Assembly: GCA_041752275.1 (NCBI GenBank)
Contig: JBGSHK010000008.1
Coordinates: 2,641 to 66,640 of the forward strand
DNA length: 64,000 bases
Origin: Minisyncoccia bacterium
GTDB taxonomy: Bacteria > Patescibacteriota > Minisyncoccia > Phycocordibacterales > CAIZLB01
Reading direction: 5' to 3'
In this document: positions 3,967 through 64,000 of the stretch, piece by piece
How positions within the stretch are numbered: the stretch's first letter is position 1
Layout: each line of letters begins with the position of its first letter
Program-made: the position numbers and the translations under genes
The notes under the pieces: model-generated
Database searches by the model: none
The model's input: the letters and a program-made list of their open reading frames with translations, nothing else
What the model was told of the DNA's origin: nothing

Positions 3967-3973
3967 TTAGATT

Positions 3974-4511: not shown

Positions 4512-4515
4512 AAAT

Positions 4516-5454: not shown

Positions 5455-5480
5455 GAAACAAAAGTATAAAAAATAAAAAT

Positions 5481-7549: not shown

Positions 7550-7627
7550 TAGTATAAATGGTGTATTTTAATATATTGTGTTAACATAGGTTATCAAAAT
7601 ATATAAAATTAAACATTAAACATAAAT

Positions 7628-8989
7628 ATGATTAAATCACATGGACGTAAGTCAAAAATAATTGCCAAAATAGCTGACAACAACGCAGAACCAGAATACT
7701 TAAAATCTCTTATAGAGGCCGGTATTGATGTTATGTGGCTAAACACTGCTCATCAAGGTGAGGAAGAAGCTCTCGATGTTGTCAACAAAATACGTCAAGT
7801 GTCAGATCAAAAAATGTCTATTTTACTTGATACAAAAGGACCTGAAACTAGAACAAAAGGATTAGAAAATCCTTTGGAAATTAAAAAAGGTGATTATGTT
7901 GTTTTCACAGGTGATATGTCTTTAACAGGTTCAAATATTATAGGTGTAGATTATCCAAATTTTCACAATGAAATACCTGTAGGAGAGCTTATAAGTTATG
8001 ACGATAACTCAGCTTCTTTTATAGTTGAAGAAAAAGTTGATAACGGTATAAAATGTATAGTAAAAAATGATGCTATTATAAAAAATAAAAAAAGTTTAAA
8101 TGTTCCAAATGTTCACATAAACTTACCCTCACTTACTCCAAAAGATGTTAGCTTTATACATTTCTGTGCTAAAAATGATATAGATTTTATCATTCACTCT
8201 TTTGTAAGAAATGTTCAAGATTTAAACGATATAAAAGAAATACTTAAAGAATATCCAGCTTATAAAGGTAAAATTATAGCAAAAATAGAAAATAGAGCAG
8301 GTTTTGACAATAGAGATGGTATTTTAGATAACTGTGATGGACTTATGGTAGCCCGAGGAGACCTTATGGCCGAAGTTCCTCTTGAAGAGCTTCCTTATAT
8401 GCAAAAGAAAATGGTTGAATCAACTTTGAAAAAAGGAAAATACTGCATAGTTGCAACTCAAGTTCTTAAAAATATGGTTAAAAATCCATCTCCTACACGT
8501 GCTGAAGTTCTTGATATTGGTAACGCGGTCCTAGACGGGACTCATGGTATATCTATGAGTGATGAAACAGCTTTTGGTGATTATCCTCTTGAGGCTACAA
8601 ACGTAATGCATAGAGTTATGAAATATACAGAAGATATGAGAGGTGAACTTGTTCATTTTACAGCAGAGCCGGTATCAACAGATCCTTTATTTACTTGGGC
8701 AAAAGAAGTTGTTGAAAAGGCAAATTCTGAAAAAATTACAGCCATAGTAACAAAAATTTCTCTTGAGGCTAACAAAGCGTTGTCTGCATATCATCCAATG
8801 TCAACTATCTATGCAGGAGTGTCTGATATTATGGATTTTAGAAATATGTCTTTAGGGTATGCTTTAACACCTATAATGATAGAAAATGATACCGTTTTAG
8901 ATCTTAAAAACTCTATATCTTTTGAATCACAAGACAAGATCATGTTATGTGAAGAAGTTGATGGAAAACTTGTGTATAGCATTGTTTAG
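7628..8989 (+). CDS. pyk: pyruvate kinase
   Basis: RKSKIIAKI..., LDTKGPETR, MVARGDLMAEVP conserved pyruvate kinase blocks. Confidence 0.85.
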   Translation: MIKSHGRKSKIIAKIADNNAEPEYLKSLIEAGIDVMWLNTAHQGEEEALDVVNKIRQVSDQKMSILLDTKGPETRTKGLENPLEIKKGDYVVFTGDMSLTGSNIIGVDYPNFHNEIPVGELISYDDNSASFIVEEKVDNGIKCIVKNDAIIKNKKSLNVPNVHINLPSLTPKDVSFIHFCAKNDIDFIIHSFVRNVQDLNDIKEILKEYPAYKGKIIAKIENRAGFDNRDGILDNCDGLMVARGDLMAEVPLEELPYMQKKMVESTLKKGKYCIVATQVLKNMVKNPSPTRAEVLDIGNAVLDGTHGISMSDETAFGDYPLEATNVMHRVMKYTEDMRGELVHFTAEPVSTDPLFTWAKEVVEKANSEKITAIVTKISLEANKALSAYHPMSTIYAGVSDIMDFRNMSLGYALTPIMIENDTVLDLKNSISFESQDKIMLCEEVDGKLVYSIV

Positions 8990-8990
8990 T

Positions 8991-9072
8991 TTATTCATTT
9001 CGATCATAGTCCTCAAAAAGAGCTATTTTGGATAGCTCTTTTCTGCGGATGATCTTATTCATAAATAAACAA
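8991..9072 (+). repeat. copy A of a ~70-nt conserved intergenic module (TCATTTCGATCATAGTCCTCA - hairpin - TCTGCGGATGATCTTATTCATAAATAAA)
   Basis: Shares its 5' and 3' flank motifs with copies at 19969-20040 and 33681-33752. The central hairpin (11-bp stem) differs in sequence but not in structure. Confidence 0.7.
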
Positions 9073-9107
9073 TGAGTAACTCTTGACCATTATGATATAA
9101 TAGATAA

Positions 9108-9923
9108 GTGCCAAACATAAAAACATCCACAAAAAAAAATATACCAATAAAATCTCCATATGTAGAAATATATAATGGTGATTTGGTATTTATAGAAAAT
9201 GAAACAACTTACGGCAATAAATCAGCTAGTTTTATTGCTGGCAAAGTTTACCCTTTAAAAGTAAGAGATCTTCCTGATCATGATAAACCTAGGGAAAAAC
9301 TATTAAACCTAGGTGTAAAATCACTTGGATTAACAGAGTTACTTTCTATTGTACTCATGACAGGTACTAAAAAAGAAGATGTTTTATCCATGTCTTCTCG
9401 TGTCATAAAAGAATATGGAAAAAGTATTTTTTCAAATCCTGGACTTGATTTAAATAAAATATCAAAAGATTTAGATATACCTATAACTAAAGTATGTCAG
9501 ATTATTGCATGTGGGGAACTTGGTAAAAGACTTTTTGATAAAAATATAAATGGGGTAAAAACCATAAGAACAGTTGATGATGTTTATGAACACACAAAAG
9601 ACATGCATGGTTTATCAAAAGAACATTTAAGAGGGCTTTATCTGGACACTCACAATAAGATAATACATGATGAAGTTTTGTCTATTGGTACCATAAACAG
9701 TAGCATTATACATGCTAGAGAAGTTTTTAAACCGGCCATAGAGTATGGTGCAGCAGCATTTATACTTGTACACAACCATCCATCAGGTATCTCAACACCA
9801 TCAGAGTCAGATAAACTTATTACAGAGCAGATTATAAAAGCAGGAAAGGTTTTAGGCATAGCCTTGCTTGATCATGTTGTTGTGACAAGAGATTCTTTTG
9901 CCTCTGTGCCAGTTGAGTATTAG
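9108..9923 (+). CDS. radC: RadC-family JAMM/MPN+ protein
   Basis: C-terminal HNHPSG...SESD JAMM motif and N-terminal helix-hairpin-helix-like PREKLL..GxxxLxxxELLSIVL. GTG start at 9108 per the ORF track; the true start is uncertain. Confidence 0.8.
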   Translation: MPNIKTSTKKNIPIKSPYVEIYNGDLVFIENETTYGNKSASFIAGKVYPLKVRDLPDHDKPREKLLNLGVKSLGLTELLSIVLMTGTKKEDVLSMSSRVIKEYGKSIFSNPGLDLNKISKDLDIPITKVCQIIACGELGKRLFDKNINGVKTIRTVDDVYEHTKDMHGLSKEHLRGLYLDTHNKIIHDEVLSIGTINSSIIHAREVFKPAIEYGAAAFILVHNHPSGISTPSESDKLITEQIIKAGKVLGIALLDHVVVTRDSFASVPVEY

Positions 9924-9942
9924 TTTTATTATTTTAAAAAAT

Positions 9943-10623
9943 ATGCAAGGAAAACTTTATATAGTAGCAACTCCAATAGGAAACAAAGACGATATAACAA
10001 TTCGCGCCATTTCAACATTGAAAGAAGTTGATGTTATAGCCGCGGAGGACACTCGTGTTATAGGAAAACTTTTATCTTTACTTTCTATACCAAAAAAACA
10101 CATAGTATCTATAAACGAGTTTGCCACAGAAGAAAATCTTGCCTATATATATAGTTTTTTGACAGAAGGTAAAAATGTTGCTTATGTATCAGATGCAGGA
10201 ACTCCTGGTATATCTGATCCGGGTGCTGTTTTAGTATCATATTGTCGTCAAAAAGATATAGAGATAGTACCTATACCGGGTGCATCAGCCATATCAACGG
10301 CCATGTCAGTTTCAGGTATAAGAGAGACACCTTTCTTGTTTTATGGTTTTTTACCACACAAAAATGGACGTAAAAAGATTTTGACAGAACTATTTGCTTT
10401 AAACAAAAACATTATTTTATACGAATCAGTACATCGTTTCACTAAACTCTTGGATGATATTTTAAACACAAACAAAGATCAAGAAATATTTGTTGCCAGA
10501 GAACTTACAAAAATGTATGAAGATATAAAGTTCGATACTGTAGAAAATATTAAAAAATATTATGAAGAAAACAAAACAAAACTTAAGGGTGAATTTGTTG
10601 TAATTATTAAAAATAACAAATAA
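9943..10623 (+). CDS. rsmI: 16S rRNA 2'-O-ribose C1402 methyltransferase RsmI
   Basis: GKLYIVATPIGN...AAEDTR tetrapyrrole-methylase-fold N-terminus. The ATG at ~9943 is preferred over the upstream alternative start at 9898. Confidence 0.8.
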   Translation: MQGKLYIVATPIGNKDDITIRAISTLKEVDVIAAEDTRVIGKLLSLLSIPKKHIVSINEFATEENLAYIYSFLTEGKNVAYVSDAGTPGISDPGAVLVSYCRQKDIEIVPIPGASAISTAMSVSGIRETPFLFYGFLPHKNGRKKILTELFALNKNIILYESVHRFTKLLDDILNTNKDQEIFVARELTKMYEDIKFDTVENIKKYYEENKTKLKGEFVVIIKNNK

Positions 10624-33805: not shown

Positions 33806-34176
33806 TATCATCCTCCTAACTATAAGCCGAATTCTGTATCAAATTTTATCGAAACAAAATTTGACGACAATCATTTATCTGGGATGAAGATTGCTCTTCA
33901 CCTCGAGCGGCACTTACGTGTAAACACGCACACGGCCTTGCACACATGTAAGAGTTTAGCCGTTTCACCCTTATTGTTTTTACAACACTAACAATAAGAT
34001 TGACCTCGTGTAGGCCTGTATCAACTTTCGTTGACACACGTCACTGCTCGCATCTCTCTGTTGCCAGAGAAGGGAGTTACCCTTTACAATCCTGCATGGA
34101 TAAATCCACGCGTGTGTTCGGACTTTCCTCTGTGTTTTCTCTAAAGAAATACAGCGATTGTCTGTTTGGAGGATGT
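33806..34176 (-). ncRNA. rnpB: RNase P RNA (bacterial type A)
   Basis: The minus strand carries AGAGGAAAGTCCGAAC (P4 5' strand), GGCAACAGAGAG, AAGGGTGAAACGG, GCAAGGCC and ACAGAATTCGGCTTATAG (P4 3' strand) in the canonical order. The P1 stem CATCCTCC/GGAGGATG sets the ends; ~371 nt. Confidence 0.85.
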
Positions 34177-43894: not shown

Positions 43895-45112
43895 TTATAT
43901 TTTTACCTCAACTTGTTTATCCTCAACTTTATCTTTCTCCTCCGTCCTTGTTTTAACGGTTTTGGGTGTAAAATTGTTTAGCTGTATATATGAAGGTGTC
44001 TGAATGTTACTTTCCTGTATTTTTGATATATTTTCTCCTAATATAAAATCACTTGCATCAACTACAACTTTTATATTTTCTGGTTTAAGTTTAGCTACAT
44101 CTCTGTTATTACCTGTAACCGTAATGTTTACAGAGTCAGGGACACTAGTTTTTATAATAAGATTATTATTTACAAATCTATATTCTATTGGTACTGAATA
44201 TTCCATTTTAACTATACCTGTCTTATATGATAAAAAATACCAAAAACTTAATGCAAAAATAATAGCCATTGTTTTATACAAAACATTTTTTATGAATATT
44301 TTATATAATATATTTTTATTTACTTGTAAAACTTTTTCTTCTTGACCTGTAAATTTGGCTATTATATCGACAAGTTCTTCTGGTGTTTTTACTTTTTTTA
44401 AAATACCTTTTGATGATATAGAAACCTCACCTCTTTCCTCTGATACAACTATTGCCATTGCATCAGTTCCTTCTGTTATACCTGCCGCAGCCCTATGTCT
44501 TGTACCAACTTTTTTGTATTCAGTAAAATCACGAGCTAAAGGTAAATGTAGTCCAAACATCTTTATTTCTGATCCTTCTATAAGTATAGCCCCATCATGC
44601 CCAGGAGACGATGAATCAAAAATACTTTGTATAAGAGCTGCACTTATTTTCCCATTTAAAGGAAAACCTCCTTCAAGTAAATCATCAAGCGGAAACTCTC
44701 CGGGAAAAACTATAATAGCTCCAACATGTTGATCTCTCATATTGAAAACAGCTTTAACTATAGTTTGTATGTTGTTTTTAGGTAAATCTAAAGATTTTGA
44801 AAAAGATGTCAGTCTACCAGATGATATCCACTTGAAAAATTTTCTAATTTCTTGTTGAAATACAATAACAAAAATTGCAATAAACAAAGTTAAAAGTGGT
44901 TCAAATAATTGTCTAGTTAAACTCAAATCAAATTTTTGTGCTATAAAGTTTAATCCAAACAATAATATAAATATATTAAGTATAAAAAATGATTTTGTCT
45001 TTTTTATAAAAATAATTAAGAAATAAGTTAAAACAGCTATTATCAATATATCAAATACATCTTTTATCATTATGGATGATAGTAAATTTTGTGTTTGAGA
45101 TAAGTATTTCAT
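43895..45112 (-). CDS. cdaA: diadenylate cyclase CdaA with a C-terminal YbbR/CdaR-like extension
   Basis: 3 N-terminal TM helices, then the DAC domain (DGAILIEG...GTRHRAA...VVSEERGE), then an extra TM helix and ~120 aa resembling YbbR repeats. Confidence 0.75.
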   Translation of the reverse strand: MKYLSQTQNLLSSIMIKDVFDILIIAVLTYFLIIFIKKTKSFFILNIFILLFGLNFIAQKFDLSLTRQLFEPLLTLFIAIFVIVFQQEIRKFFKWISSGRLTSFSKSLDLPKNNIQTIVKAVFNMRDQHVGAIIVFPGEFPLDDLLEGGFPLNGKISAALIQSIFDSSSPGHDGAILIEGSEIKMFGLHLPLARDFTEYKKVGTRHRAAAGITEGTDAMAIVVSEERGEVSISSKGILKKVKTPEELVDIIAKFTGQEEKVLQVNKNILYKIFIKNVLYKTMAIIFALSFWYFLSYKTGIVKMEYSVPIEYRFVNNNLIIKTSVPDSVNITVTGNNRDVAKLKPENIKVVVDASDFILGENISKIQESNIQTPSYIQLNNFTPKTVKTRTEEKDKVEDKQVEVKI

Positions 45113-51631: not shown

Positions 51632-52147
51632 TTAGGGACGGAGGGTAGTTTGTGCCACCACCCCCCATCCTTCTTGCGGAACTGAAGAGTACCCCCAAAA
51701 GGTGTCGTTCTGCTCGGTTGGAACTGCAGGAATGTACCAGCCGATCTGATTCGTCCTGCCACCTAGTGATGAGCGACACCCTTCGGAGTCGATGTCACTG
51801 ATATCTTTATTGCCAATCCTTGCAGCACATGGTGCACAAAGCAAGGATTGGTGGTCGAGAAACGTTTGGTACTCTCGCCAGAGTTTTACCCCACGTGCAC
51901 CACACAGACAGCATCTGTAGCTTGCAGGTGCGGTGATCATGGAATAATTTACCGGTTGTGAAGGATTGACTATAGGGTCATATGGAGATCCTTCTCCAAA
52001 CATTTCCCGAGCAAGTCGAAGGGCCTTGGCCGGACCCCTTTCTCCATTAAATGACATCGAAGGTTTTTTACCTCTCGAACGTTTCCATATTGCATGCCCT
52101 ATAACGAAAGGAGCACTACCGGGTAAAAAACGAAGGAACTTTTTCAT
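51632..52147 (-). CDS. hypothetical Cys-rich protein (island gene 1)
   Basis: 171-aa ORF with GC ~50%, preceded by the duplicated TTGACA...TTATCTTAA promoter/leader module. Its 3' part overlaps alternative-frame ORF 51535..51762, which ends next to the terminator, so the C-terminus is uncertain. Confidence 0.45.
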   Translation of the reverse strand: MKKFLRFLPGSAPFVIGHAIWKRSRGKKPSMSFNGERGPAKALRLAREMFGEGSPYDPIVNPSQPVNYSMITAPASYRCCLCGARGVKLWREYQTFLDHQSLLCAPCAARIGNKDISDIDSEGCRSSLGGRTNQIGWYIPAVPTEQNDTFWGYSSVPQEGWGVVAQTTLRP

Positions 52148-52159
52148 GATTTATTGTTT

Positions 52160-52222
52160 GTTGTTGGTTGTGAAAAGTAAAAGTGCTACCGTTAAGATAA
52201 CACTTTTTATATATTTGTCAAC
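52160..52222 (-). promoter_or_regulatory. promoter/leader module copy 1 (minus strand: TTGACAaatatataaaaagtgTTATCTTAAcGGTAGCACTTTTAC...)
   Basis: ~55 nt conserved with the copy at 52610-52670, including the -35 TTGACA and a -10-like TTATCTTAA/TTATCGTAA. Confidence 0.5.
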
Positions 52223-52223
52223 A

Positions 52224-52298
52224 ATACTCCTCGAGTTACCTTTTTACCGAACTAGGGGAGTGGTTTAGATTGTTGAAGAGGAATGGGTTTAGATTTAT
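52224..52298. repeat. R element (~70 nt) copy 1
   Basis: ctcctcgagttacctttttaccgaactaggggagtggtttagattgttgaagaggaatgggtttag; second copy at ~53727-53800 with ~8 substitutions. Confidence 0.6.
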
Positions 52299-52300
52299 AT

Positions 52301-52338
52301 AAAATGAAAATCCCGTCAGCTTTACCTGTGACGGGAGG
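52301..52338 (-). terminator. rho-independent terminator for the 80-aa gene
   Basis: Minus strand: cccgtcacaggtaaagctgacggg followed by attttcatttt. Confidence 0.6.
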
Positions 52339-52352
52339 GGTATTCAATGTTT

Positions 52353-52595
52353 CTATGATGAAATTTGTGGTTTTGATATTTCATCCCAAGATGCTTCGTA
52401 ATCAAAGGATATTGACACGTTAACCCCGTTAGAATTTAAGAATTTTCCCGTGATGTGTAGTTCAGGGTAGTCTCCTGATGCATTATCCTCAAGAATTTCA
52501 CTATCATTATTGGGGACATTTGATTTTCCTTCGGCAGTAAGAATAACGAATATCCTATGCCAGAGTTCCTTGTTTTTGTGTTCTTGAACTTTCAT
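52353..52595 (-). CDS. hypothetical small acidic protein (island gene 2)
   Basis: 80-aa ORF between terminator T3 and promoter/leader module copy 2. Confidence 0.45.
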   Translation of the reverse strand: MKVQEHKNKELWHRIFVILTAEGKSNVPNNDSEILEDNASGDYPELHITGKFLNSNGVNVSISFDYEASWDEISKPQISS

Positions 52596-52609
52596 ATTTT
52601 GTTGTTACA

Positions 52610-52670
52610 GTTGATTGCAGTCAGTAAAAAGTGCTACCTATTACGATAACACTTTTTACGTATTTGTCAA
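52610..52670 (-). promoter_or_regulatory. promoter/leader module copy 2
   Basis: Minus strand: TTGACAaatacgtaaaaagtgTTATCGTAAtaGGTAGCACTTTTTAC. Confidence 0.5.
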
Positions 52671-52721
52671 CACTTGCTCCGCGCATGGGAGGATGTTCGA
52701 ACCTTGTTGTGCAAATGAAAA

Positions 52722-52765
52722 CCACCCCTGGCACGAATGGTTCCGTGCAGGGGCGGTGGTTGGTA
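52722..52765 (-). terminator. rho-independent terminator for island gene 3
   Basis: Minus strand: ccccTGCACGGaaccattCGTGCCAgggg followed by tggtttt. Confidence 0.6.
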
Positions 52766-52788
52766 GCAAGAGTTTATCCAGTTATCAG

Positions 52789-53253
52789 CTAACCTCGAAG
52801 GTCGATCTGGTTATAGCCCTTCTTTCTCATCTCAACATAGATAGGGAGAAGCAGCATGAGTAGTCTGTGGTTTGCTTCATCTTTGCTTTCTGTCGTATCA
52901 AGGTACACTGTATTGATTGCCTCGGAGATCGTAGGCATTGGGATGCCCAACCTCTCAATCGTACCGTCAAGTATCTGATAGAACTCGGCACCTGTTTGTC
53001 CTAGGCGCAATTCTGAATTGAAATAGTGTTTCCTGTCTTCTTCGGATATTGTATCCCTGAAAACTTTATCCCATCCGCCATTTTCTCGCATTAGGGTGCG
53101 ATATGTACCCTCCGAGTTGCCCGTAGGAACAGGTACATCGCCCAAAGGGAAGTGCTGATGGAAATTGTTGATAATATTGTTGCGTGCGATGGACCACCCT
53201 TCGCTTGCGTCAATTTTTGATTCAGATTCATCGTATGGTTGTTCGTTTTGCAT
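52789..53253 (-). CDS. hypothetical protein (island gene 3)
   Basis: Start moved to the second ATG, which has a perfect AAAGGAGGT 5 nt upstream. No own promoter: the gene begins ~35 nt after the DUF1059 gene's terminator. Confidence 0.5.
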   Translation of the reverse strand: MQNEQPYDESESKIDASEGWSIARNNIINNFHQHFPLGDVPVPTGNSEGTYRTLMRENGGWDKVFRDTISEEDRKHYFNSELRLGQTGAEFYQILDGTIERLGIPMPTISEAINTVYLDTTESKDEANHRLLMLLLPIYVEMRKKGYNQIDLRG

Positions 53254-53293
53254 TTTACCTCCTTTCAAGGGCTGGTTAAGTTGATTGAAACTA

Positions 53294-53330
53294 AAAAGAA
53301 CACGACATATTTATATCACGTTCTTTTTAA
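53294..53330. terminator. bidirectional hairpin aaaaagaacacgacatatttatatcacgttcttttt
   Basis: 11-bp stem with a mismatch, flanked by A-run and T-run. Confidence 0.55.
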
Positions 53331-53392
53331 TTTGTCTAATTAGCTCCTTCTAGTACACGAGTTCAGAACTTTAAATTGGAGGAATATTCAAT

Positions 53393-53620
53393 CTAAACTT
53401 GTGAATTTTCAACTTCTTTAACCTCTTCTTCGGACACATCTTCTGGTGCCATTTCAAATCTAGCTTTATTGTCAGCCATCCATTTTTCCATATCTCCATT
53501 AGGGTCATTCATTACTTCAGGGTGTGCTTGCATGTAGTGAGGTTGAAGATTTGTCATCCATTCTTCAAAAGTATTACCTTGGGCAGTTACTTCACATAAA
53601 TCACATTTAAGAGTTTTCAT
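53393..53620 (-). CDS. DUF1059-family small protein (island gene 4)
   Basis: 75 aa; MKTLKCDLCEVTAQGNTFEEWMTNLQPHYMQAHPEVM pattern as in DUF1059. Confidence 0.5.
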   Translation of the reverse strand: MKTLKCDLCEVTAQGNTFEEWMTNLQPHYMQAHPEVMNDPNGDMEKWMADNKARFEMAPEDVSEEEVKEVENSQV

Positions 53621-53692
53621 AATATTTTTTTTATTTAAAATTTAATTAATAATTTATATTATAGCACAAGTTCTGAACACTGTTTGGGTAAC

Positions 53693-53800
53693 CAAAATCA
53701 CCCTACAGAATAAGGTGATTTTAATGGCTCCCGAGTTACCTTTTTACCGAACTGGGGGAGTGGTGTAGGTTGTTGAAGAGGAATGGGTTTAGGTTTGTAT
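53693..53800. repeat. T1 terminator copy 2 fused to R element copy 2
   Basis: aaaatcaccctacagaataaggtgatttt immediately followed by ggctcccgagttacctttttaccgaactgggggagtggtgtaggttgttgaagaggaatgggtttagg. Confidence 0.6.
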
Positions 53801-53873
53801 AAAAGAAAAAGAACCCAGCAACTTTAGAAAGTACATCTAGATTCATCTTTTTGGTTTATATACCGAGATTTGA

Positions 53874-54281
53874 TCAATGATCAGGATAGAACATTGGAAT
53901 TTGTCCCTCGAAGACCTCCTGGAGATAAAGGTTGAGGAGGATTCGTTGTGCACCTCTACCAAAATCATCTCCACTCGACAAGTGTCCAGGGTCTTTCAGA
54001 GATCCGATATTACGAATCCTATCAGAGATGTTTTTCCAGATTTGTTCCGTCTGTCCACCAGATTTTGTCCCCGTGATGGTGATCGAGCAAGAGCAAGATA
54101 CACCCTTGGAATCAGTTATCGATTCACTGGTATTAATGTTGACTCCGACGAGGTGTGGTTGGATCAGTGAATCAGGAGTACTGAACTCTTCAGCAATGAT
54201 TTGTTGCAATTCAGCACGAGCATCTTCGAGATGTGTGCGATTTCCGAACTCACTCGTATAAGCGATGTTTATGGTTGACAT
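53874..54281 (-). CDS. hypothetical protein (island gene 5); TGA stop
   Basis: 135-aa ORF with no recognisable family; GC ~47%. Confidence 0.45.
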   Translation of the reverse strand: MSTINIAYTSEFGNRTHLEDARAELQQIIAEEFSTPDSLIQPHLVGVNINTSESITDSKGVSCSCSITITGTKSGGQTEQIWKNISDRIRNIGSLKDPGHLSSGDDFGRGAQRILLNLYLQEVFEGQIPMFYPDH

Positions 54282-54440: not shown

Positions 54441-54528
54441 ACATAATGAAGGTATTTATACTTATAAATATTAATAAAGAAGATATAATAGCAAAAATAT
54501 CTAATGGGTGGTAAAATATCATCTAATA

Positions 54529-56958
54529 ATGGCAATTAAAAAATCACAACTATATAGTTCTATTTGGCAAGGGTGTGATGAGCTCCGAGGTGGAATGGAT
54601 GCCTCACAATATAAAGATTACGTACTTGTTCTTTTGTTTATACGTTATGTTTCAGATAAATACTCAGGTAAAGTAGATTCATTGGTTGAAATTCCAGCGG
54701 GTGGTAGTTTTGCAGATCTTGCCAGTTTGAAAGGAAAATCACATATTGGAGATGGTATCAATAAAGTTCTTGCAAAACTTGCTGAGGCTAATGGACTGCA
54801 AGGTGTTATTGATGCAGTTGATTTTAATGACGAAGAAAAGCTTGGTAAAGGTAAGGATATGCAAGATAGACTTTCAAACCTTATTGCTATTTTTGAAAAT
54901 CCTGATTTAGATTTTAGTAAAAACAAAGCTGAGGGCGACGATCTACTTGGCGATGCATATGAGTACCTTATGAAGCATTTTGCTGTTGAGTCTGGTAAAA
55001 GCAAAGGACAGTTTTATACTCCGGCAGAAGTTTCCCGAATTGTAGCTAAAGTTATTGAAGCAAATAAAGCTGACAGTGGTATGCATACAGTGTATGACCC
55101 TGCCTGTGGTAGTGGTTCATTGCTTTTGAAAGTCGCAGAGGAAGCAAAGAAAATTTCTATTTATGGACAAGAGCTTGATACTGCAACCGCAGGACTTGCA
55201 ACACTTAACATGTGGCTACATAACAAACCTGAAGCTGAAATAAGAAAAGGGCAAAGCACACTCTCCACACCGCTCTTTATAGAACATGGATCTCTCAAGA
55301 CGTTTGATTATGTTGTAGCTAATCCACCCTTTTCTTACAAATCATGGCGTAACGGTTTTGAACCAGAACACGATCAGTACGATCGTTTTGACGGTTTTGG
55401 TATTCCTCCAAAAAAGAAAGGAGACTTTGCCTTTCTTTTGCATATTTTGAAATCACTTAAAAGCACAGGGACAGGTGCAGTCATCCTTCCGCACGGTGTT
55501 TTATTCCGTGGAAATGTAGAAGCTGAAATTCGTAAGAACATTATTGAAAGAGGATATATCAAAGGAATAATTGGATTACCAGCAAACCTTTTCTACGGAA
55601 CAGGAATATCTGCCTGCATTATCGTGTTAGACAAAGCAACTGCCACTACACGCAAAGGCATCTTCATGGTAGATGCCTCAAAAGGATTTATTAAAGATGG
55701 AAATAAGAATCGTCTTCGTGAGCGGGATATTCGCAAGATTGTAGATACGTGGACAGACAAGCTGGAGACTTCAAGGTTTTCCCGCTTTGTTACAAATGAA
55801 GAAATTAAGAAGAATGATTATAACCTCAACCTTCCGAGATATATTGATGCTCAAGAAATAGAGGATATTCAAGATATCGAAGCACATCTTAAGGGTGGAA
55901 TTCCTGAAGCTGATATTGAAATCCTTTCTCCCTATTGGAAAATCTGTTCAACCCTGAAACATTCACTTTTTAAAGCCAATGGCCGTAAAGGTTATAGTGA
56001 GATAAAGATTGCACCCGATGAAGTTAAGAAGACGATTCTTGGTCATGCTGAATTTGAGACATTCAGAAAAGATGTGTTGTTACATTTTGCAAAATGGCAA
56101 ACTCCAATCACCTCATATTTGAAGGGTATTTCTGTTACAGATCATCCAAAAGCGATTATTGAAAAAATATCCGATAGTCTACTTGAAAAATTTGCTGATC
56201 TTACACTGATTGATAAATATGATATTTATCAACACCTTATGTCATATTGGGAAGAAATAATGCAGGATGATACACATATCGTAACAGTTGAAGGTTGGAA
56301 ATCGGGAAATGAAATAGTTCGATTGCAAAAAGAGAATAAAGGAAAGAAAAAAGATATTGATGGCCTTGTCGGTCTTGAAGGTAGACTTATTCCTACATCT
56401 CTTATCATTAAGACTTATTTTGAAAAGGAACAAAAAGTAATTTATGGATTGAATTCTGCGCTTGAACAGGTGGGTGTAGACATGGATACTCTCAAAGATG
56501 AACATGGTGGAGACGAAGGTCTGCTTTCTGAGGTGATTGATAATGACAAGATCAGCAAGGTAAGTGTTTTGAAAAGAATCAAAGAAATCAAGCATAGCAA
56601 TGATGATACTGATGAACTCGCGGTCCTAGAAAAATATACTGTCCTATTTGAAAAGGAATTTGATACTAAAAAAACAATCAAAGACGCCCTTATAGATATT
56701 GAAAAGAAGGTCCTTAAAAAGTACCCGACACTTTCTATCGATGAGGTAAAAACACTTGTCGTTGAAGATAAGTGGATGAATGAACTCTCTACTCGCATAC
56801 TCGGCGAAGTTGATAGATTGTCCCAGACTCTTGCTGGCCGTGTAAAAGAGCTTGCGGAGAGATATGTAAAACCAATGCCTAAGATTGTGGAAGAGGTTGA
56901 AGATTTAAAAAATAAAGTCGAAAGACATCTGAAAAAGATGGGATTTGATATTAAATAA
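54529..56958 (+). CDS. hsdM: type I restriction-modification system DNA methyltransferase subunit HsdM (long form with ~300-aa C-terminal extension)
   Basis: N6-adenine methyltransferase motifs (DPACGSGS motif I; VVANPPFS motif IV), HsdM N-terminal domain, coiled-coil-rich C-terminal extension. ATG at 54529 preferred over GTG at 54508. Confidence 0.85.
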   Translation: MAIKKSQLYSSIWQGCDELRGGMDASQYKDYVLVLLFIRYVSDKYSGKVDSLVEIPAGGSFADLASLKGKSHIGDGINKVLAKLAEANGLQGVIDAVDFNDEEKLGKGKDMQDRLSNLIAIFENPDLDFSKNKAEGDDLLGDAYEYLMKHFAVESGKSKGQFYTPAEVSRIVAKVIEANKADSGMHTVYDPACGSGSLLLKVAEEAKKISIYGQELDTATAGLATLNMWLHNKPEAEIRKGQSTLSTPLFIEHGSLKTFDYVVANPPFSYKSWRNGFEPEHDQYDRFDGFGIPPKKKGDFAFLLHILKSLKSTGTGAVILPHGVLFRGNVEAEIRKNIIERGYIKGIIGLPANLFYGTGISACIIVLDKATATTRKGIFMVDASKGFIKDGNKNRLRERDIRKIVDTWTDKLETSRFSRFVTNEEIKKNDYNLNLPRYIDAQEIEDIQDIEAHLKGGIPEADIEILSPYWKICSTLKHSLFKANGRKGYSEIKIAPDEVKKTILGHAEFETFRKDVLLHFAKWQTPITSYLKGISVTDHPKAIIEKISDSLLEKFADLTLIDKYDIYQHLMSYWEEIMQDDTHIVTVEGWKSGNEIVRLQKENKGKKKDIDGLVGLEGRLIPTSLIIKTYFEKEQKVIYGLNSALEQVGVDMDTLKDEHGGDEGLLSEVIDNDKISKVSVLKRIKEIKHSNDDTDELAVLEKYTVLFEKEFDTKKTIKDALIDIEKKVLKKYPTLSIDEVKTLVVEDKWMNELSTRILGEVDRLSQTLAGRVKELAERYVKPMPKIVEEVEDLKNKVERHLKKMGFDIK

Positions 56959-56963
56959 ACTTT

Positions 56964-58151
56964 ATGACAAGTGTAATCAAAACAATTCCAAAGGGATACA
57001 AACAAACTGAAATCGGGGTTGTTCCTACTGATTGGGATGTCCAACCAATAAGTTATATTGCAAAGGTTACAACAGGGTCTAAAAACACTCAGGACAAAAT
57101 CGATACTGGCCTCTACCCATTCTTTGTGCGATCCCAAGTAGTTGAGAGGATAAATAGTTATTCTTATAACGGTGAAGCTATTCTAACTGCTGGAGACGGT
57201 GTTGGTACCGGTAAGGTTTTTCATTACATAAATGGTAAGTTTGATATCCATCAGAGAGTTTACAAAATCAGTGACTTCTCTAGTGATATAAATGGATATT
57301 ATTTCTACTTGTATTTTAGTAATAATTTCTATAAAAGAATTATGCAGATGACCGCAAAATCATCTGTCGATTCAGTTCGAATGGAAATGATTGCTGACAT
57401 GCAAATCCCTTTACCTAGTAAGACTGAACAGGTATCCATTACTAAAGCGCTCTCCGATATCAGTACTCTAATCCAAAAGACAGAAAGTCTGATTGAAAAG
57501 AAGAGGGTTATTAAACAAGGTGCAATGCAGGAATTACTTACGGGAAAAAGAAGACTGTCTGGTTTTAGTGGTGATTGGGATTATAAAAGACTTGGTGATA
57601 TCACAGACATGTCGTCGGGTGGAACACCGTTATCAAGTAATCCGGTTTATTATGGTGGGTGGATACCTTGGGTTGTAATTGCTGATATGACCAGAATAAC
57701 TAAATATCTTTTTGATACAGAAAAAAAGATCACAAACAAAGGACTTGAAAATAGTTCAGCAAAATTATTTCCTGCAGGAACACTGCTTTTTGCTATGTAT
57801 GCATCAATAGGAAAGTGTTCAATTACTAAAGTTGATGTAAGTTGTAATCAAGCTATTTTAGGAATCAATACAAAAAAGATTGATATAGAATTTTTATATT
57901 ATTATTTGTCATTTAATGAGCAGAAGTTTTTGCAAATGGGTCAATCAGGAACACAAAATAATCTGAACAAAGAAATAGTTGAGAATTTCTCGATACCCTA
58001 TCCTCAAATACCGGAGCAAACCGCCATTGCTACCATCCTCTCCGATATGGATACCGAAATAGAAAAGCTTGAATCGGAAATGATAAAATGGAAAGATATA
58101 AAGCAAGGGATGGTGCAAACATTATTAACAGGTAAAATAAGATTAATCTAA
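56964..58151 (+). CDS. hsdS: type I RM specificity subunit HsdS
   Basis: Two target-recognition domains separated by and ending in conserved helical spacers (LLTGKRRL ... LLTGKIRL). Confidence 0.85.
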   Translation: MTSVIKTIPKGYKQTEIGVVPTDWDVQPISYIAKVTTGSKNTQDKIDTGLYPFFVRSQVVERINSYSYNGEAILTAGDGVGTGKVFHYINGKFDIHQRVYKISDFSSDINGYYFYLYFSNNFYKRIMQMTAKSSVDSVRMEMIADMQIPLPSKTEQVSITKALSDISTLIQKTESLIEKKRVIKQGAMQELLTGKRRLSGFSGDWDYKRLGDITDMSSGGTPLSSNPVYYGGWIPWVVIADMTRITKYLFDTEKKITNKGLENSSAKLFPAGTLLFAMYASIGKCSITKVDVSCNQAILGINTKKIDIEFLYYYLSFNEQKFLQMGQSGTQNNLNKEIVENFSIPYPQIPEQTAIATILSDMDTEIEKLESEMIKWKDIKQGMVQTLLTGKIRLI

Positions 58152-58155
58152 TAAT

Positions 58156-61100
58156 ATGAATACAACACAAACAACAATTGTAGGACAAATCGAAAGAAAA
58201 ACACAGAACCGTGTTGTTTCTCTTTTTCGTGATAGTTTAGGTTATGATTATTTTGGTAATTGGGAAGATCGTGAAGAAAATAGCAATATTGAGGAAGAAT
58301 ACTTGCGACCATTTCTTATGCGATCAGGTCATGGTGATATACTTATAGATAAAGCCATCGAAACTCTAAAAAAGTCTACGAATCGTCCACAACTATCACT
58401 GTATGAACTCAACAAAGAAACATATGGTCTTCTTAGATATGGAATTAAGGTTCGTGAAGGATTGGGGGAAAGTTATCAGACAATTTGGCCTATAGATTGG
58501 AAGAATCCAGAAAAGAATCATTTTGCGATTGCGGAAGAGGTAACTATCAAAGGGAATAAGACAAAGCGTCCTGACATTGTTTTATATGTGAATGGTATTG
58601 CAGTTGGTGTGATTGAACTCAAGAGAAGTACTGTCTCTGTATCAGAGGGTATTAGACAGAATATAGGAAATCAAAAAGAAGATTTTATAAAAACATTCTT
58701 TGGAACGATCCAATTGATAATGGCTGGTAATGATACAGAAGGATTAAGATATGGTACAACGGAAACCCCAGAGGTTCATTATCTCTCATGGAAAGAGGTG
58801 GGGGTTGGTAGTGAATCTAGACTTGATAAAACAATACTTCAGATATGTGATAAGAATAGAATATTAGAGATTATTCATAATTTTATTGTATTTGATAGTG
58901 GAATTAAGAAGACCTGTAGACATAATCAATATTTTGGTATTAAATCAGCACAGGATTATCTAAACCGACATGAAGGTGGAATAGTTTGGCACACTCAAGG
59001 TTCTGGAAAATCTTTGACTATGGTGTGGCTAGCAAAATGGATCCGAGAAAATATCTCTGATGCACGTGTTCTTCTTCTTACTGACCGCACAGAGCTTGAT
59101 CAACAGATTAAGCAAGTATTTAATGGTGTTGATGAAGAAATATGGCGAGCACCAAATGCTAAAGATCTGCTTTCTGAATTAAATAAAAAGGATAAGTGGC
59201 TTCTGTGTTCACTAGTCCACAAATTCGGAAGAAGAAATGCAAATGGTGAGATGGAAGTTGATGTTGATTCTTTGCGAAGTAATTTACCAACTGATTTCTC
59301 AGCAAAAGGAAATATATATGTATTTGTTGATGAATGTCATCGATCACACACAGGTAAACTCCACGAGGCAATGAAGGAGTTATTGCCAAACGCTACTTTT
59401 ATTGGCTTTACAGGCACACCGCTTCTAAAGATTGATAAATCGAATAGTGTTGGCTCATTTGGTCCTTATATCCATACATACAAATACAATGAGGCTGTCG
59501 CTGATAAAGTTGTATTGGATTTAAGGTATGAAGCTCGTAGAGTTGATCAAGATATATCTTCTCAAGATAAGATCGATGAATGGTTTGAAGAACGTACACA
59601 AGGACTTACTGATGTAGCAAAAGCAGAATTGAAAAAACGTTGGGGTACAATGCAGAGTTTGTTATCTTCAAAGTCACGTTTAGAAAAAGTAGTATTTGAT
59701 ATTCTTGATGATTTCTATAAAAAGGATCGTCTTGCGAGTGGTCGGGGTAATGCCATGCTGGTTGCAAGTAGTATTTCTGAAGCTTGTATGTATTATGAGA
59801 TATTTCAGTTACAAGGTTTTACTAAATGTGCCGTTGTAACCTCATATGAACCAGGTGCTCTTTCAAGTGATACTCGTGAATATGCTATATATCAAAGAAT
59901 GTTAGGAGGTAAAGATACCGAGACTTTTGAAAAAGAAGTAAAAAAGAAATTCATTGATACACCAGGACAAATGCAACTTCTAATTGTGGTGGACAAACTA
60001 CTCACCGGCTTTGACGCTCCGCCTGCTACATATCTTTATATCGATAGAAATATGCAGGATCATGGATTGTTCCAAGCAATTTGTCGTGTAAATCGATTGG
60101 ATGGTGATGATAAGGAATACGGATATATTGTTGATTACCGCGACCTCTTTAAGAAGCTTGAAAAAGCCGTGAGTGACTATACTTCAGATGCACTGGATGG
60201 ATTTGATAAGGAAGATGTTGTAGGCCTTTTGAAGGATAGAATGGATGAAGGTAAGAAAGATTTAGATGAAGCCTTAGAGGTGGTTCGAGCATTGTGCGAG
60301 CCTGTAGCTCCTCCAAAAGATTCTATAAAATACATTAACTATTTTTGTGGTGATGTTGAAAATCCCTACTCTCTTAAAGAAAATGAGGTAAAAAGAGTTA
60401 AGTTATATAAGTCTGTAAGTCATCTCATAAGATCTTATGCTGATATTGCGAATGATATGAAGGATGCTGGATACAATAAAGATCAAGCAAAAGCTATCGA
60501 AAAAGACGTGAAGCATTATGAACAGGTACGTACAGAAGTAAAGCTTGCAAGTGGTGATTATATCGACCTCAAAAAATATGAATCTGCCATGCGCGTTCTT
60601 ATTGATAGATATATATCAGCCACTGAAAGTCAGAAGCTGTCAGCCTTCAATGATATGACATTGGTGGATTTGATTGTTAAAAAAGGTGAGGATGCTTTGA
60701 ATAATTTACCTGACACTATTAAGCAAAGTCATGAAGCTGTTGCTGAAACAATTGAGAACAATGTACGTAAACTTATTATTGATGAGATGCCAACAAATCC
60801 TAAGTATTACTTACGTATGTCTGAGCTTTTAAATGAATTGGTAAAAAAACGTAAGCAAGCAGATGTTGAATACAGGGAGTACTTGAAACAGATTATTGAG
60901 CTATCTAAAAAGGTTAAAGATCCTATGGACGAATCTGTAGGTGTAGAAATTAACACATCTGCAAAACGAGCTATCTACGATAATCTCGGACAAGATGTAC
61001 AAAAAGCTGTTATGGTACACGAAGCTGTTATGGGTTCAAGGCAGGCAGATTGGCGAGGTAATAAACTTAAAGAGAGGGCAATTAAAATTGAAATTAGAAA

Positions 61101-61173
61101 AGTGTTACCGGATATCATCGATGAAGATATGAAAACTTTAATTGAAATTATTAAAAATCAACATGAGTATTAA
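58156..61173 (+). CDS. hsdR: type I RM restriction endonuclease/helicase subunit HsdR
   Basis: N-terminal PD-(D/E)xK region (DIVLYVNGIAVGVIELK), SF2 helicase motifs (TQGSGKS; DECHRSHTG), 1005 aa. Confidence 0.88.
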   Translation: MNTTQTTIVGQIERKTQNRVVSLFRDSLGYDYFGNWEDREENSNIEEEYLRPFLMRSGHGDILIDKAIETLKKSTNRPQLSLYELNKETYGLLRYGIKVREGLGESYQTIWPIDWKNPEKNHFAIAEEVTIKGNKTKRPDIVLYVNGIAVGVIELKRSTVSVSEGIRQNIGNQKEDFIKTFFGTIQLIMAGNDTEGLRYGTTETPEVHYLSWKEVGVGSESRLDKTILQICDKNRILEIIHNFIVFDSGIKKTCRHNQYFGIKSAQDYLNRHEGGIVWHTQGSGKSLTMVWLAKWIRENISDARVLLLTDRTELDQQIKQVFNGVDEEIWRAPNAKDLLSELNKKDKWLLCSLVHKFGRRNANGEMEVDVDSLRSNLPTDFSAKGNIYVFVDECHRSHTGKLHEAMKELLPNATFIGFTGTPLLKIDKSNSVGSFGPYIHTYKYNEAVADKVVLDLRYEARRVDQDISSQDKIDEWFEERTQGLTDVAKAELKKRWGTMQSLLSSKSRLEKVVFDILDDFYKKDRLASGRGNAMLVASSISEACMYYEIFQLQGFTKCAVVTSYEPGALSSDTREYAIYQRMLGGKDTETFEKEVKKKFIDTPGQMQLLIVVDKLLTGFDAPPATYLYIDRNMQDHGLFQAICRVNRLDGDDKEYGYIVDYRDLFKKLEKAVSDYTSDALDGFDKEDVVGLLKDRMDEGKKDLDEALEVVRALCEPVAPPKDSIKYINYFCGDVENPYSLKENEVKRVKLYKSVSHLIRSYADIANDMKDAGYNKDQAKAIEKDVKHYEQVRTEVKLASGDYIDLKKYESAMRVLIDRYISATESQKLSAFNDMTLVDLIVKKGEDALNNLPDTIKQSHEAVAETIENNVRKLIIDEMPTNPKYYLRMSELLNELVKKRKQADVEYREYLKQIIELSKKVKDPMDESVGVEINTSAKRAIYDNLGQDVQKAVMVHEAVMGSRQADWRGNKLKERAIKIEIRKVLPDIIDEDMKTLIEIIKNQHEY

Positions 61174-61885
61174 TTCATATTTGCAACTTGGTCCAATCGA
61201 GGCATTAATTGTTCGTAAACCGGTCAAGAACTTACATCTTTCGATATTACCACCAAATGGATGGGTACGTGTTACTGCCCCACAAAATATGAATGATGAT
61301 GCCATAAGAACACTTCTGGCACTTAGACTTCCGTGGATAAAAAAACAACAAGCAAAATTTAGTGGACAGCAAAGACAAACCAAACGAGATTATGTCTCAG
61401 GAGAGAGTCATTATTTTCTTGGTAAAAGATATAAGCTTGAAGTTATATACAAAGATGAGCCATCCAATATAACAATAAAAGGGAAAAATAAAATTATTTT
61501 ACAAGTTAAACCAAAAACTAGTGTAAAAAAGAAACAAGAAATTATTACTGATTGGTATCGAGAAGAACTACATATTGTTTTAAATGAGCTTGTTGATAAA
61601 TGGCAAAAAAAGATTGGGGTTGAGGCTTCTTCTTGGAGTATTAAACAAATGAAAACTCGTTGGGGTACTTGTAATCATGAAACAGCAAAGGTACTTTTTA
61701 ATCTAGAGTTATCAAAAAAACCAATTAGTTGTATTGAATATGTGGTAGTCCATGAATTAGTTCATTTAATTGAAAGAAAGCATACTGAAAGGTTTGTTGC
61801 TTTGGTGGCCAAGCATCTTCCTAAATGGAAAAGCCTGAAGGATGAACTTAATAGTTTTATACTTTCTTATGACGAATGGAAATAA
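61163..61885 (+). CDS. DUF45/YgjP-like M48-related zinc metallohydrolase
   Basis: C-terminal HELVHLIERKH (HExxH) in a ~240-aa protein directly after hsdR, as seen in many type I RM loci. Confidence 0.7.
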   Translation: MSINSYLQLGPIEALIVRKPVKNLHLSILPPNGWVRVTAPQNMNDDAIRTLLALRLPWIKKQQAKFSGQQRQTKRDYVSGESHYFLGKRYKLEVIYKDEPSNITIKGKNKIILQVKPKTSVKKKQEIITDWYREELHIVLNELVDKWQKKIGVEASSWSIKQMKTRWGTCNHETAKVLFNLELSKKPISCIEYVVVHELVHLIERKHTERFVALVAKHLPKWKSLKDELNSFILSYDEWK

Positions 61886-62058
61886 AAAACTAGCCAAATC
61901 TTCAAGTACAGTACCAGAGATAAGTATAAGTAATTAAATAACAGAAGACATAGGTCTTAGGAATTTTGATAATGAGGTTTTAATTAATTCTGTTACATTC
62001 TTTTGTATATATTTGAAAATTGATGCTATTCAGTTAAAAAAGATATATAATAGTTTTT

Positions 62059-62814
62059 ATGGTAAATTCTAAAAAGAAAACTATTTCTGTAAAAAATACT
62101 AAACTAGTGTGGGGTGAAAGCGCGGGCTATTGTGCAAAATGTAAAAATAGGGTTATAGAAAAAATTGCAAAAGGAACACTTGAACCAGTTGGTCAATTGG
62201 CACATATTGAAGGTGAAATGCCGGGGTCTAAAAGATATAATCCTAATCAATCTGATAATGAGAGAAATGGACATGATAATTTAATTTTATTATGCCCAAA
62301 TGATCATGATTTGATCGATAGAGATGATGTTACGTACACTGTTGAAGTTCTACATAAAATGAAAAAAGATCATTTGAGGTTTGTTTTCAATTGTATTAAA
62401 TCAGAACTTCCAAATATCACCTTTGCTGAACTAGAAGTGGTTGTTAATTATTTAGTGTCTTCGGATAATAATTTTACTCCTGATCACTCTTTAGATCACA
62501 TTACACCTCAACAAAAAATAGATAAAAATAAACTAACAAATGATAATGCTATTTTAATAACAATGGGAATGACAAGGGTAAAACATGTTAAAGAATACCT
62601 AAACAATAATCCTGATGTTAATTTTTCAGAAAGGTTGAGAACAAAATTGTCTGAGTATTATACTCAAGCAAAAATTGAAGAATCTGACACAAATATTTTA
62701 TTTGAAAATATGATAGAATATGTATCTGGAAACTCTGTTGATATTAAAAAGAAAGCTGCTGCAATTGCTGTTATGACTTATTTTTTTGAAACTTGTGATA
62801 TATTTGAAAAATGA
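62059..62814 (+). CDS. HNH-nuclease-domain protein with a ~130-aa C-terminal helical domain
   Basis: N-terminal CxxC...AHIEG...N(x)HDNLILLCPNDHDLID HNH motif; C-terminal domain unassigned. Confidence 0.6.
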   Translation: MVNSKKKTISVKNTKLVWGESAGYCAKCKNRVIEKIAKGTLEPVGQLAHIEGEMPGSKRYNPNQSDNERNGHDNLILLCPNDHDLIDRDDVTYTVEVLHKMKKDHLRFVFNCIKSELPNITFAELEVVVNYLVSSDNNFTPDHSLDHITPQQKIDKNKLTNDNAILITMGMTRVKHVKEYLNNNPDVNFSERLRTKLSEYYTQAKIEESDTNILFENMIEYVSGNSVDIKKKAAAIAVMTYFFETCDIFEK

Positions 62815-63032
62815 TTCTACCTAATAAAAACATAATACTATCTAATTCACTATTAGGTCTCGGCCAGATTGTTTTAGGTATCTTAAATAATAAAGAAACG
62901 GTATCTTCTTTGTGGTTAAAAACTCGTGGAGAAAAAATTAATACTTTTGGAAAATTTATTTTAGTTTTAGATTTTTTATACACATTGAAATTAGTAAAGA
63001 TCACTGATAATCTTATAAGTAAGACAAATGAT

Positions 63033-64000
63033 TAAATCAATCAAAAGCAATAATAAAGATTTTAAAACAGTGACTTTTAAAGAGGGTTTTAACGTTGTGT
63101 TGGCTGAAAGAACTTTAGATTCAACAGATAAAGATTCTCGAAACGGTGTTGGTAAATCAACTTTAATTGAGATAATACATTTTTGTTTAGGTTCAGATTT
63201 GAGTAAGACAAGTTTTTTGGCTCTAAATTGCAAGAATCATTCTTTTACAATAGAACTTGAGTTACAAAACAATACACTAAGTGCGACGAGGAGTATTGAA
63301 AATCCTAACGTGATACAAATGTACGGTGATTTTTCAAGTTTACCAGTTAAACCAAAGTATGATGAGCACTACAAATCAAACATATATTCTATTGAAGAGT
63401 GGAAGGGTGTTTTAGGTCAAAAGTTATTTAATTTAAATATTGAGAATGGCGGAAAATATAATCCATCTTTTCGAACTCTAATTTCTTATTTTATAAGAAA
63501 AGGTGTAGGTGCATTTATTGATCCCTTTAAATATTTTCCCGATCAGCCAAATTACAGTGTTCAAGTGCATAATAATTTTCTTTTAAATTTAGACATTAAT
63601 CATGCAATAAGTTTTCAAAAAATTAAAGATGAAAAAGAATCTTTTAATATTATAAGAAAAAACATAAATGATGATTCACTTAACGACATATTAGGATCAG
63701 TAGGTGAATTGCAAGCGGAAAGAGTTAGGTTGACTGAGGAATCAATAGAATTAGATTTACAAATTAAGTCTTTCAAGGTTCATACTCAATATAAAAAAAT
63801 ACAAGAAGAGGCTGATTTGATAACTGGTCAGATTCACGCATTACTTAATGATATCAATCTGGATCAAAGAATTTTGGCAGAATATAAGAACAGTTTAGTT
63901 GAGGAAGAGGATGTTTCAGCAGATAAGGTGGCAGAGGTATATTCTGAGGCAGGGTTGGTTTTTGATAAAAAAGTAATGAATAGATTAACTGATGTGCGTA
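63033..64000 (+). CDS. P-loop ATPase of the ABC/SMC-like (AAA_15/RecF-like) type, N-terminal part (continues beyond window)
   Basis: EGFNVVLAERTLDSTDKDSRNGVGKSTLIEIIHFCLG is a Walker A typical of ABC-like defence ATPases, followed by coiled-coil-like sequence. No stop before nt 64000. Confidence 0.65.

Follow-up and report, generated by a model that had tools for sequence, protein, structure and literature searches.

Does the end of a 64,000-nucleotide (nt) stretch of DNA from a Minisyncoccia bacterium (contig JBGSHK010000008.1 of assembly GCA_041752275.1; the whole stretch is called the window below) hold a second defence system beside its type I restriction-modification (RM) operon, and if so, to which family does this system belong? 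The locus in question carries a gene for an HNH nuclease protein and one for a large ATPase, a pair from which a reading made without database searches (the sequence-only reading) had proposed a second defence system that would be ABC-three-component (ABC-3C)-like or an undescribed variant. The analysis presented here indicates that the locus is most probably a complete short (type II) Lamassu/ABC-3C system of the HNH subtype, consisting of three genes, which would act by sequestering, releasing and oligomerising its nuclease effector. The proposal of a second, ABC-3C-like system by the type I RM operon is therefore borne out, as evidenced through matches to the ABC-3C families CTD10 and MC6, the LmuB-like fold of the ATPase, and three-gene synteny.

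ABC-3C is the earlier name of type II Lamassu, with HNH being among the N-terminal domains of the effector LmuA (PMC10586767). Lamassu has been split into long and short forms, of which the short form has HNH as a specific effector, an LmuB ATPase of ~600 amino acids (aa) on average with a Walker B motif of the pattern hhhhD[Q/S/T/E], and a clade that is effector-less (Haudiquet et al., bioRxiv 10.1101/2025.04.02.646746). The ATPase encoded here fits short LmuB, as its Walker B motif (LIHD-S) and its length of 581 aa agree with the reported pattern and length. The HNH subtype is already catalogued in PADLOC as PDC-M68, the PDC entries being 145 candidate systems that were recognised by their position inside BREX, DISARM or type I RM systems (Payne et al., 2024), and adjacent genes of the locus match both of its profiles: PDC-M68A matches the effector at 3.8e-63 (residues 9-250 of 251), and PDC-M68B the whole ATPase at 4.1e-181 (residues 1-580 of 581) and its window fragment at 2.2e-96. 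The match of the whole ATPase to the PADLOC profile for LmuB of Lamassu is weaker (1.4e-12). With both proteins matched end to end, and HNH a listed effector of short Lamassu, the suggestion of an undescribed variant does not stand, and the locus adds a member to a known subtype, but no new kind of system.

Locus Organization and Completeness

The features of the locus are given below in window positions, except where a public contig, L001 (8,783 bp, found by exact-protein look-up), is named.

61886-62058, forward strand: AT-rich spacer of 173 nt on the 5' side of the effector gene, presumed to be the promoter region of the operon
62059-62814, forward strand: LmuA-like effector gene, 251 aa (ORF call and PADLOC PDC-M68A match)
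62059-62403, forward strand: HNH (His-Me finger) nuclease domain, effector residues 1 to ~115
62410-62811, forward strand: helical C-terminal domain, ABC-3C CTD10, effector residues ~118-251
62811-63035, forward strand: LmuC-like middle component gene, 74 aa (Pfam PF20293, MC6)
63028-64000, forward strand: LmuB-like SMC/Rad50-type ABC ATPase gene of the DUF2326/YydD family, with the first 324 of its 581 codons in the window
L001 7294-8016 and 8020-8748 (window-equivalent ~64801-66255), reverse strand: two convergent genes 3' of the ATPase gene, 240 and 242 aa

Translation of the open reading frames (ORFs) confirmed what the sequence-only reading had described, namely a 251-aa HNH protein with the motif AHIEG...NLILLCPNDHD followed by an ATPase that runs off the window. 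The 220-nt gap that it had placed between these two genes is, however, not a gap, as the ATPase begins with an ATG at 63028, 213 nt after the effector stop, and the interval is filled by a 74-aa ORF of the MC6 family. The ATG of this middle component gene shares 4 nt with the effector stop (ATGA), whilst 8 nt are common to its 3' end and the start of the ATPase gene, and from these overlaps the gene is predicted to be translationally coupled to both of its neighbours. This small gene escapes both the two-gene model used by PADLOC and a naive reading of the DNA. The order with the HNH gene first, which had been regarded as unusual, is the standard order LmuA-LmuC-LmuB. The AT-rich spacer is the sole non-coding interval between the effector gene and the preceding YgjP-like gene; a consensus promoter scan of the operon, in DNA this rich in AT, scored no higher than shuffled sequence, and no terminator was seen.

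Contig L001 is identical to window positions 57508-64000 at 6,493 of 6,493 bases and extends 2,290 bp past the window end, giving the whole ATPase gene (581 aa), which ends at window-equivalent 64773. The remaining components of the system had been expected beyond position 64000, but the DNA there encodes nothing of the system except the last 257 aa of the ATPase, the third gene being inside the supposed gap. The two minus-strand convergent genes begin 27 nt after the ATPase gene, and because they follow it on L001, the three-gene system can be considered complete. Their 240- and 242-aa proteins had no match in Pfam, PADLOC or NCBIfam. All three genes of the system are complete and intact, and those for the effector and the ATPase are both real genes.

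The Effector Protein

Residues 125-250 of the effector match Pfam PF20275, the CTD10 family of ABC-3C, with 43.6 bits (cut-off 28.1), thereby assigning the C-terminal helical domain that had been left without a family. The N-terminal 115 residues match the CBASS SAVED-HNH effectors of PADLOC at ~1e-22, with the HNH models of Pfam falling below their cut-offs in this region. When a profile of 24 homologues was compared with the PDB, its matches included 9om4 ("HNH endonuclease", 1.6e-32) and Cap5 (2.4e-21), with the Cap5 matches ending near effector residue 115. By homology, the effector begins with an HNH nuclease domain of the Cap5 type, which makes up its N-terminal half. The zinc ligands C25, C28, C79 and H83, the catalytic H49, and residues N74 and D87 are invariant among the 24 homologues and kept in the effector of the window, and so the loss of catalytic residues that had been named as an argument against a defence role was not observed. 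The C-terminal tail F-E-x-C-D-[IV]-F-E-K is likewise strictly invariant in this alignment.

In the AlphaFold2 (AF2) model of the effector (pLDDT 80.7), the fold of the C-terminal domain (CTD) matches that of the LmuA CTD, and the structure of the HNH domain is closest to Cap5. CTD10 is predicted to be the docking and oligomerisation domain. The protein, of which there are ~70 homologue clusters, thus has the architecture of LmuA, with a variable enzymatic N-terminal domain and a family-specific helical CTD.

The Middle Component and the ATPase

The 74-aa protein matches Pfam PF20293 (ABC-3C Middle Component 6, MC6) with 52.9 bits (cut-off 27.2), and a small middle component (MC) is therefore encoded between the effector and the ATPase; PADLOC has no profile for it.

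The ATPase begins with a strand and a Walker A motif (FNVVLAERT...NGVGKST) and matches Pfam DUF2326 with 129.8 bits, alongside weak matches to the Pfam families AAA_23 and SMC_N. Its homologue clusters number >1,100, many of them labelled "YydD (DUF2326 family)" by the Joint Genome Institute. In an alignment of 16 homologues, the Walker A motif DSRNGxGKS (K43), an S-Q-G signature at 476-478, the Walker B motif LIHD-S (503-508) and the motif DGVDERQ are invariant, and no CxxC zinc hook is present. The AF2 model (pLDDT 81.4) places a coiled coil in the helices of residues 190-450. The protein is thus an ABC ATPase of the SMC/Rad50-like kind whose coiled coil is short and lacks a zinc hook, and it has the Walker A motif, signature, Walker B motif of the form hhhhD[Q/S/T/E], coiled-coil insertion and approximate length of 600 aa that characterize LmuB.

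Sequence similarity between the ATPase and LmuB is too low for a match in the PDB, and so fold comparison was needed to reveal their kinship. The best Foldseek match of the model is YydD (9a6c_A, 3e-28, TM-score 0.62, 20 % identity), followed by five solved LmuB chains (9uxh_F, 9hqx, 9hqu, 9nyg and 9ux7, 2e-14 to 3e-12), with Rad50, SMC and JetC in third rank. A sub-threshold Pfam match to CTD10 (22.8 bits) was also observed inside the coiled coil of the ATPase, at residues 287-378 of the gene product (gene at L001 5521-7266), and the CTD10 family is on record for many of its homologues. When the effector CTD and ATPase residues 190-450 were compared profile against profile, the probability was 0.2 %, on which basis CTD10 was rejected as a domain shared by the two proteins and the match was read as noise of helical composition.

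Relatives in Other Genomes

With one genome scanned per species, at least 307 loci with a relative of the ATPase were detected, 80 of which were retrieved for comparison; the counts of MC, CTD and HNH domains, made with hidden Markov models, cover 81 loci, these 80 and L001. The ATPase relatives span many bacterial phyla and several archaeal lineages in a patchy distribution, the best match of the scan among GTDB representatives being at 48 %. The MC is encoded on the 5' side of the ATPase in 80 of the 81 loci and the CTD is found in 77, and in every locus missing one or the other, the contig breaks off where the ATPase gene starts. Wherever the contig permits checking, the ATPase is never found without the MC and CTD genes, and the order effector, MC, ATPase on one strand, with tight coupling, is constant among the related loci.

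The N-terminal domain of the effector is, by comparison, variable. Of the 77 loci bearing a CTD, 53 encode an HNH domain, and ~30 % of the effectors keep CTD10 without it. The effectors without HNH include two groups:

L033, L044, L048, L051-L054, L056, L066-L068, L070, L072 and L075, just upstream of position 6001 or equivalent: cyanobacterial effectors of ~210 aa, with CTD10 and a coiled-coil N-terminus of ~70 aa but no enzymatic domain
L016, L023, L025, L026, L032, L034 and L042: acidobacterial and Bryobacterales effectors of ~300 aa, with an N-terminal domain of ~170 aa on CTD10 that has no Pfam match

The first group is probably the effector-less clade of short Lamassu named by Haudiquet et al. 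The ~170-aa domain of the acidobacterial effectors has a conserved GDWK(C/A)DG...YQCY motif, which may recall a PD-(D/E)xK nuclease. Swapping of the N-terminal domain on a constant CTD is a hallmark of ABC-3C/Lamassu effectors.

Linkage to Type I Restriction-Modification

The three-gene system lies directly downstream of hsdMSR and a YgjP-like gene. The type I RM operon is complete, occupying window positions 54508-61885 with hsdM (816 aa), hsdS (395 aa) and hsdR (1005 aa), and the gene for the YgjP-like metallopeptidase (61142-61885; Pfam PF01863, 211 bits) overlaps the end of hsdR. A tblastn census of Hsd genes in the 6-kb flanks of the 80 retrieved loci found type I RM in 12 (15 %) and none in the other 68. 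Since these 68 have no such operon nearby, the system evidently works without type I RM. By a rough estimate, fewer than about 1 % of randomly chosen 12-kb stretches would be expected to include type I RM.

In six of the loci (7.5 %), the trio sits between hsdM/hsdS upstream and hsdR downstream, which is the pattern of an "embedded defence system":

L003, L020, L030, L037, L047 and L063, ~1-10500 in each locus: trio embedded in a type I RM operon

The order seen in the window, with hsdR followed by the YgjP-like gene and then the system, is repeated in L046, and the pairing of hsdR with the YgjP-like gene next to a related system is observed in both L046 and L003.

Proposed Mechanism and Alternative Explanations

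Cap4-type Lamassu systems, for which structures have been solved, consist of two LmuB protomers and LmuC, which together sequester the oligomerisation domain of an LmuA monomer (A1B2C1). They sense DNA ends, or in vivo the replication origins of phages, upon which the freed LmuA tetramerises into an active non-specific nuclease, and they protect against phages and plasmids by abortive infection. HNH domains of the Cap5/SPARHA clade occur in ABC-3C effectors and have been argued to need assembly into a tetramer or higher-order form, those characterised being switched on by oligomerisation (tetramer or filament) and cutting without sequence specificity (PMC12738770). By analogy, in an uninfected cell two protomers of the ATPase and the MC would hold one effector monomer by its CTD, which would keep the HNH domain monomeric and hence inactive. 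The ATPase heads, with help from the MC, would detect DNA ends or aberrant replication structures of phages or plasmids, and ATP turnover would release the effector. Free effectors would then oligomerise via the CTD, allowing the Cap5-type HNH domains to form a composite active site that would cut double-stranded DNA without sequence specificity, so that the infected cell would be killed or arrested (abortive infection). We infer that this logic of sequestering, sensing, release and oligomerisation is the best-supported model, and a mechanism of the Lamassu type is favoured because the locus has the same three parts together with a nuclease whose characterised relatives need oligomerisation.

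Several observations weigh against this assignment and mechanism. The TM-scores of the ATPase to LmuB are only ~0.4, which can be attributed to a different geometry of the coiled coil, and the family profile of the ATPase found nothing significant among PDB sequences, with Rad50 reaching an E-value of merely 0.24. The window effector has Q46 three residues before the catalytic His, where glutamate occurs, at a position that varies across the family; in our own alignment of the motifs, this position may correspond to the bridge residue E50 of SPARHA, and if so, the interface between HNH domains could differ. Stoichiometry, trigger and the need for oligomerisation would all be carried over by analogy from Cap4-type systems that have other CTD and MC families. 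In the literature, no experimental study of an HNH-type Lamassu was found, the HNH subtype appearing in listings, and PDC-M68 is a candidate system; literature searches on PDC-M68, DUF2326 and YydD likewise returned nothing relevant to defence.

The alternatives closest to the proposed model differ in what triggers the system or in what it does. The locus could be an ABC-3C/Lamassu relative with another trigger or output, for example an effector that remains bound to the ATPase and cuts only the invader DNA that has been sensed. The combination CTD10/MC6, as opposed to the CTD7/MC3 and CTD12 of solved systems, would agree with this, as would the shortness of the CTD (~130 aa), the strictly invariant FExCD[IV]FEK tail and the placement of the ATPase in its own YydD/DUF2326 clade with no sequence match in the PDB. 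The CTD fold nevertheless still matches the LmuA CTD, the characterised HNH domains of the Cap5 clade need oligomerisation and cut non-specifically, and ~30 % of the relatives carry other or non-enzymatic N-terminal domains on the same CTD. Enzymatic domains that are swapped or absent fit a generic release-and-oligomerise switch, and a different output is considered unlikely. The proximity to hsdMSR raises another explanation, in which the system is a guard resembling PrrC, the guard of EcoprrI, and monitors the adjacent Hsd complex, firing the HNH nuclease when an anti-restriction protein of a phage disables restriction. The position directly after hsdMSR and the YgjP-like gene would suit such a role, as would the 12 of 80 loci with type I RM within 6 kb and the six in which the trio is placed between hsdM/S and hsdR, and PrrC is cited as nearly always embedded in type I RM (Payne et al., 2024). 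Embedding is, however, a genomic habit of autonomous systems as well (Payne et al., 2024), the solved relatives sense DNA directly, and the domains of the three proteins include no module resembling one for Hsd binding. Because 85 % of the relatives (68 of 80) are without type I RM in their 6-kb flanks, a guard role is regarded as quite improbable. There is also a small chance that the clade combining HNH, CTD10, MC6 and a YydD-type ATPase is tied to type I RM as a back-up for when restriction is blocked, or that the FExCD[IV]FEK tail and the short CTD make up a switch other than the LmuA tetramer.

Explanations outside the Lamassu family have far less to recommend them. A two-gene Septu-like system of ATPase and HNH nuclease with its gene order reversed would account for the superficial content of the locus, in which genes for a P-loop ATPase and an HNH nuclease share a strand. 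Neither protein matches PtuA or PtuB in PADLOC at E ≤ 1, though, and the HNH protein bears CTD10 and belongs to the Cap5 clade, an MC gene stands between the two, and the ATPase, with its coiled-coil insertion, folds like LmuB/Rad50, so that a Septu origin can be given hardly any credence. The same is true of a housekeeping DNA-repair ATPase (RecF/RecN/SbcC-like) that is next to an HNH gene by chance, which had been put forward earlier as the outcome that would speak against defence. Whilst the fold is related to Rad50/SMC and the weak AAA_23 and SMC_N matches of Pfam agree with such an origin, NCBIfam gave no RecF, RecN or SbcC match, only a sub-threshold one to TrlF (24.7 bits, cut-off 350), and there is no Mre11/SbcD partner, the neighbours being the MC and effector genes. 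The patchy spread across bacteria and archaea, the linkage to RM and the constant presence of MC and CTD genes before the ATPase argue further against a housekeeping role. A short Lamassu system with an HNH effector remains the most probable identity of the locus.

Wider Genomic Context and Significance

The window is considered to be chromosomal bacterial DNA because it contains a gene for bacterial class A RNase P RNA (33807-34173, reverse strand; Rfam RF00010, 106 bits); no tRNA genes were found in its 64 kb. Upstream of the defence region, amid ordinary housekeeping genes, is a gene for a CdaA-type diadenylate cyclase (43895-45112, reverse strand), in which the DAC domain, the N-terminal transmembrane domain of CdaA and a YbbR-like region are encoded in one ORF. 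Just upstream of the RM operon, positions 51632-54281 hold several small ORFs in succession (171, 159, 75 and 135 aa), most of them encoded on the minus strand, and a Pfam scan of the 171-, 159- and 135-aa ORFs gave no match. The local G+C content there is 0.35-0.40, compared with ~0.30 elsewhere, and this region may mark the border of an island gained by horizontal transfer.

For genome annotation, these findings mean that a 74-codon ORF that had been overlooked and two genes otherwise labelled "hypothetical" make up a complete second defence system, of a subtype that the one-genome-per-species scan places in the genomes of at least 307 species of bacteria and archaea. The system joins a Cap5-type HNH domain, a kind known to need oligomerisation, to the sequester-and-release scaffold of Lamassu, and with proteins of 251, 74 and 581 aa it is a compact candidate for asking whether Lamassu activation holds across effector classes.

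Comparison With Known Systems

Two other defence families were tried as candidates. A Cap5 effector of CBASS was rejected, as the C-terminal half of the effector is CTD10 and not SAVED, and no cyclase is encoded among the neighbouring ORFs. Gabija/OLD was also rejected, since PADLOC gave no GajA or OLD match and Pfam no TOPRIM domain.

Septu (PtuA and PtuB) resembles the locus in pairing an ABC-type ATPase with an HNH nuclease, but it has two genes, whereas the system described here has three, including an MC and a CTD, along with a coiled-coil insertion in the ATPase and an HNH domain of a different clade. The nuclease domain itself has its closest relatives, in both sequence and structure, in Cap5 (the HNH-SAVED effector of CBASS) and SPARHA. 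These carry a SAVED or APAZ sensor and have a cyclase or Argonaute as partner, in place of which the locus has CTD10, an ABC ATPase and an MC. The ATPase, in turn, has its best structural match in YydD of the Bacillus subtilis YydB-YydC-YydD system (PDB 9a6c, an integrative YydD-YydB model). The partner in that model is YydB, which we take to be a metallophosphoesterase-type effector, whereas the partner effector here is the HNH protein.

Among catalogued systems, PDC-M68 is the nearest, with related loci embedded in type I RM, whilst the system described here follows the RM operon; PADLOC models it with two components, to which the present locus adds the third, 74-aa gene. With respect to Lamassu, the solved systems have a Cap4 (PD-(D/E)xK-like) N-terminal domain on the effector, compared with the Cap5-type HNH domain found here, and the combination CTD10/MC6 differs from the CTD7/MC3 of Vibrio cholerae and the CTD12 of type I Lamassu. 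In the case of the ATPase, which falls in the DUF2326/YydD clade, divergence from LmuB is too great for a sequence match in the PDB. Short Lamassu systems such as DdmABC of Vibrio cholerae and LmuACB of Salmonella enterica nevertheless share with this locus an SMC/Rad50-like ATPase whose coiled coil is short and whose Walker B aspartate is followed by a residue other than glutamate, a small middle component, an effector that combines a variable N-terminal domain with a helical CTD, and the same gene order, LmuA-LmuC-LmuB, on one strand.

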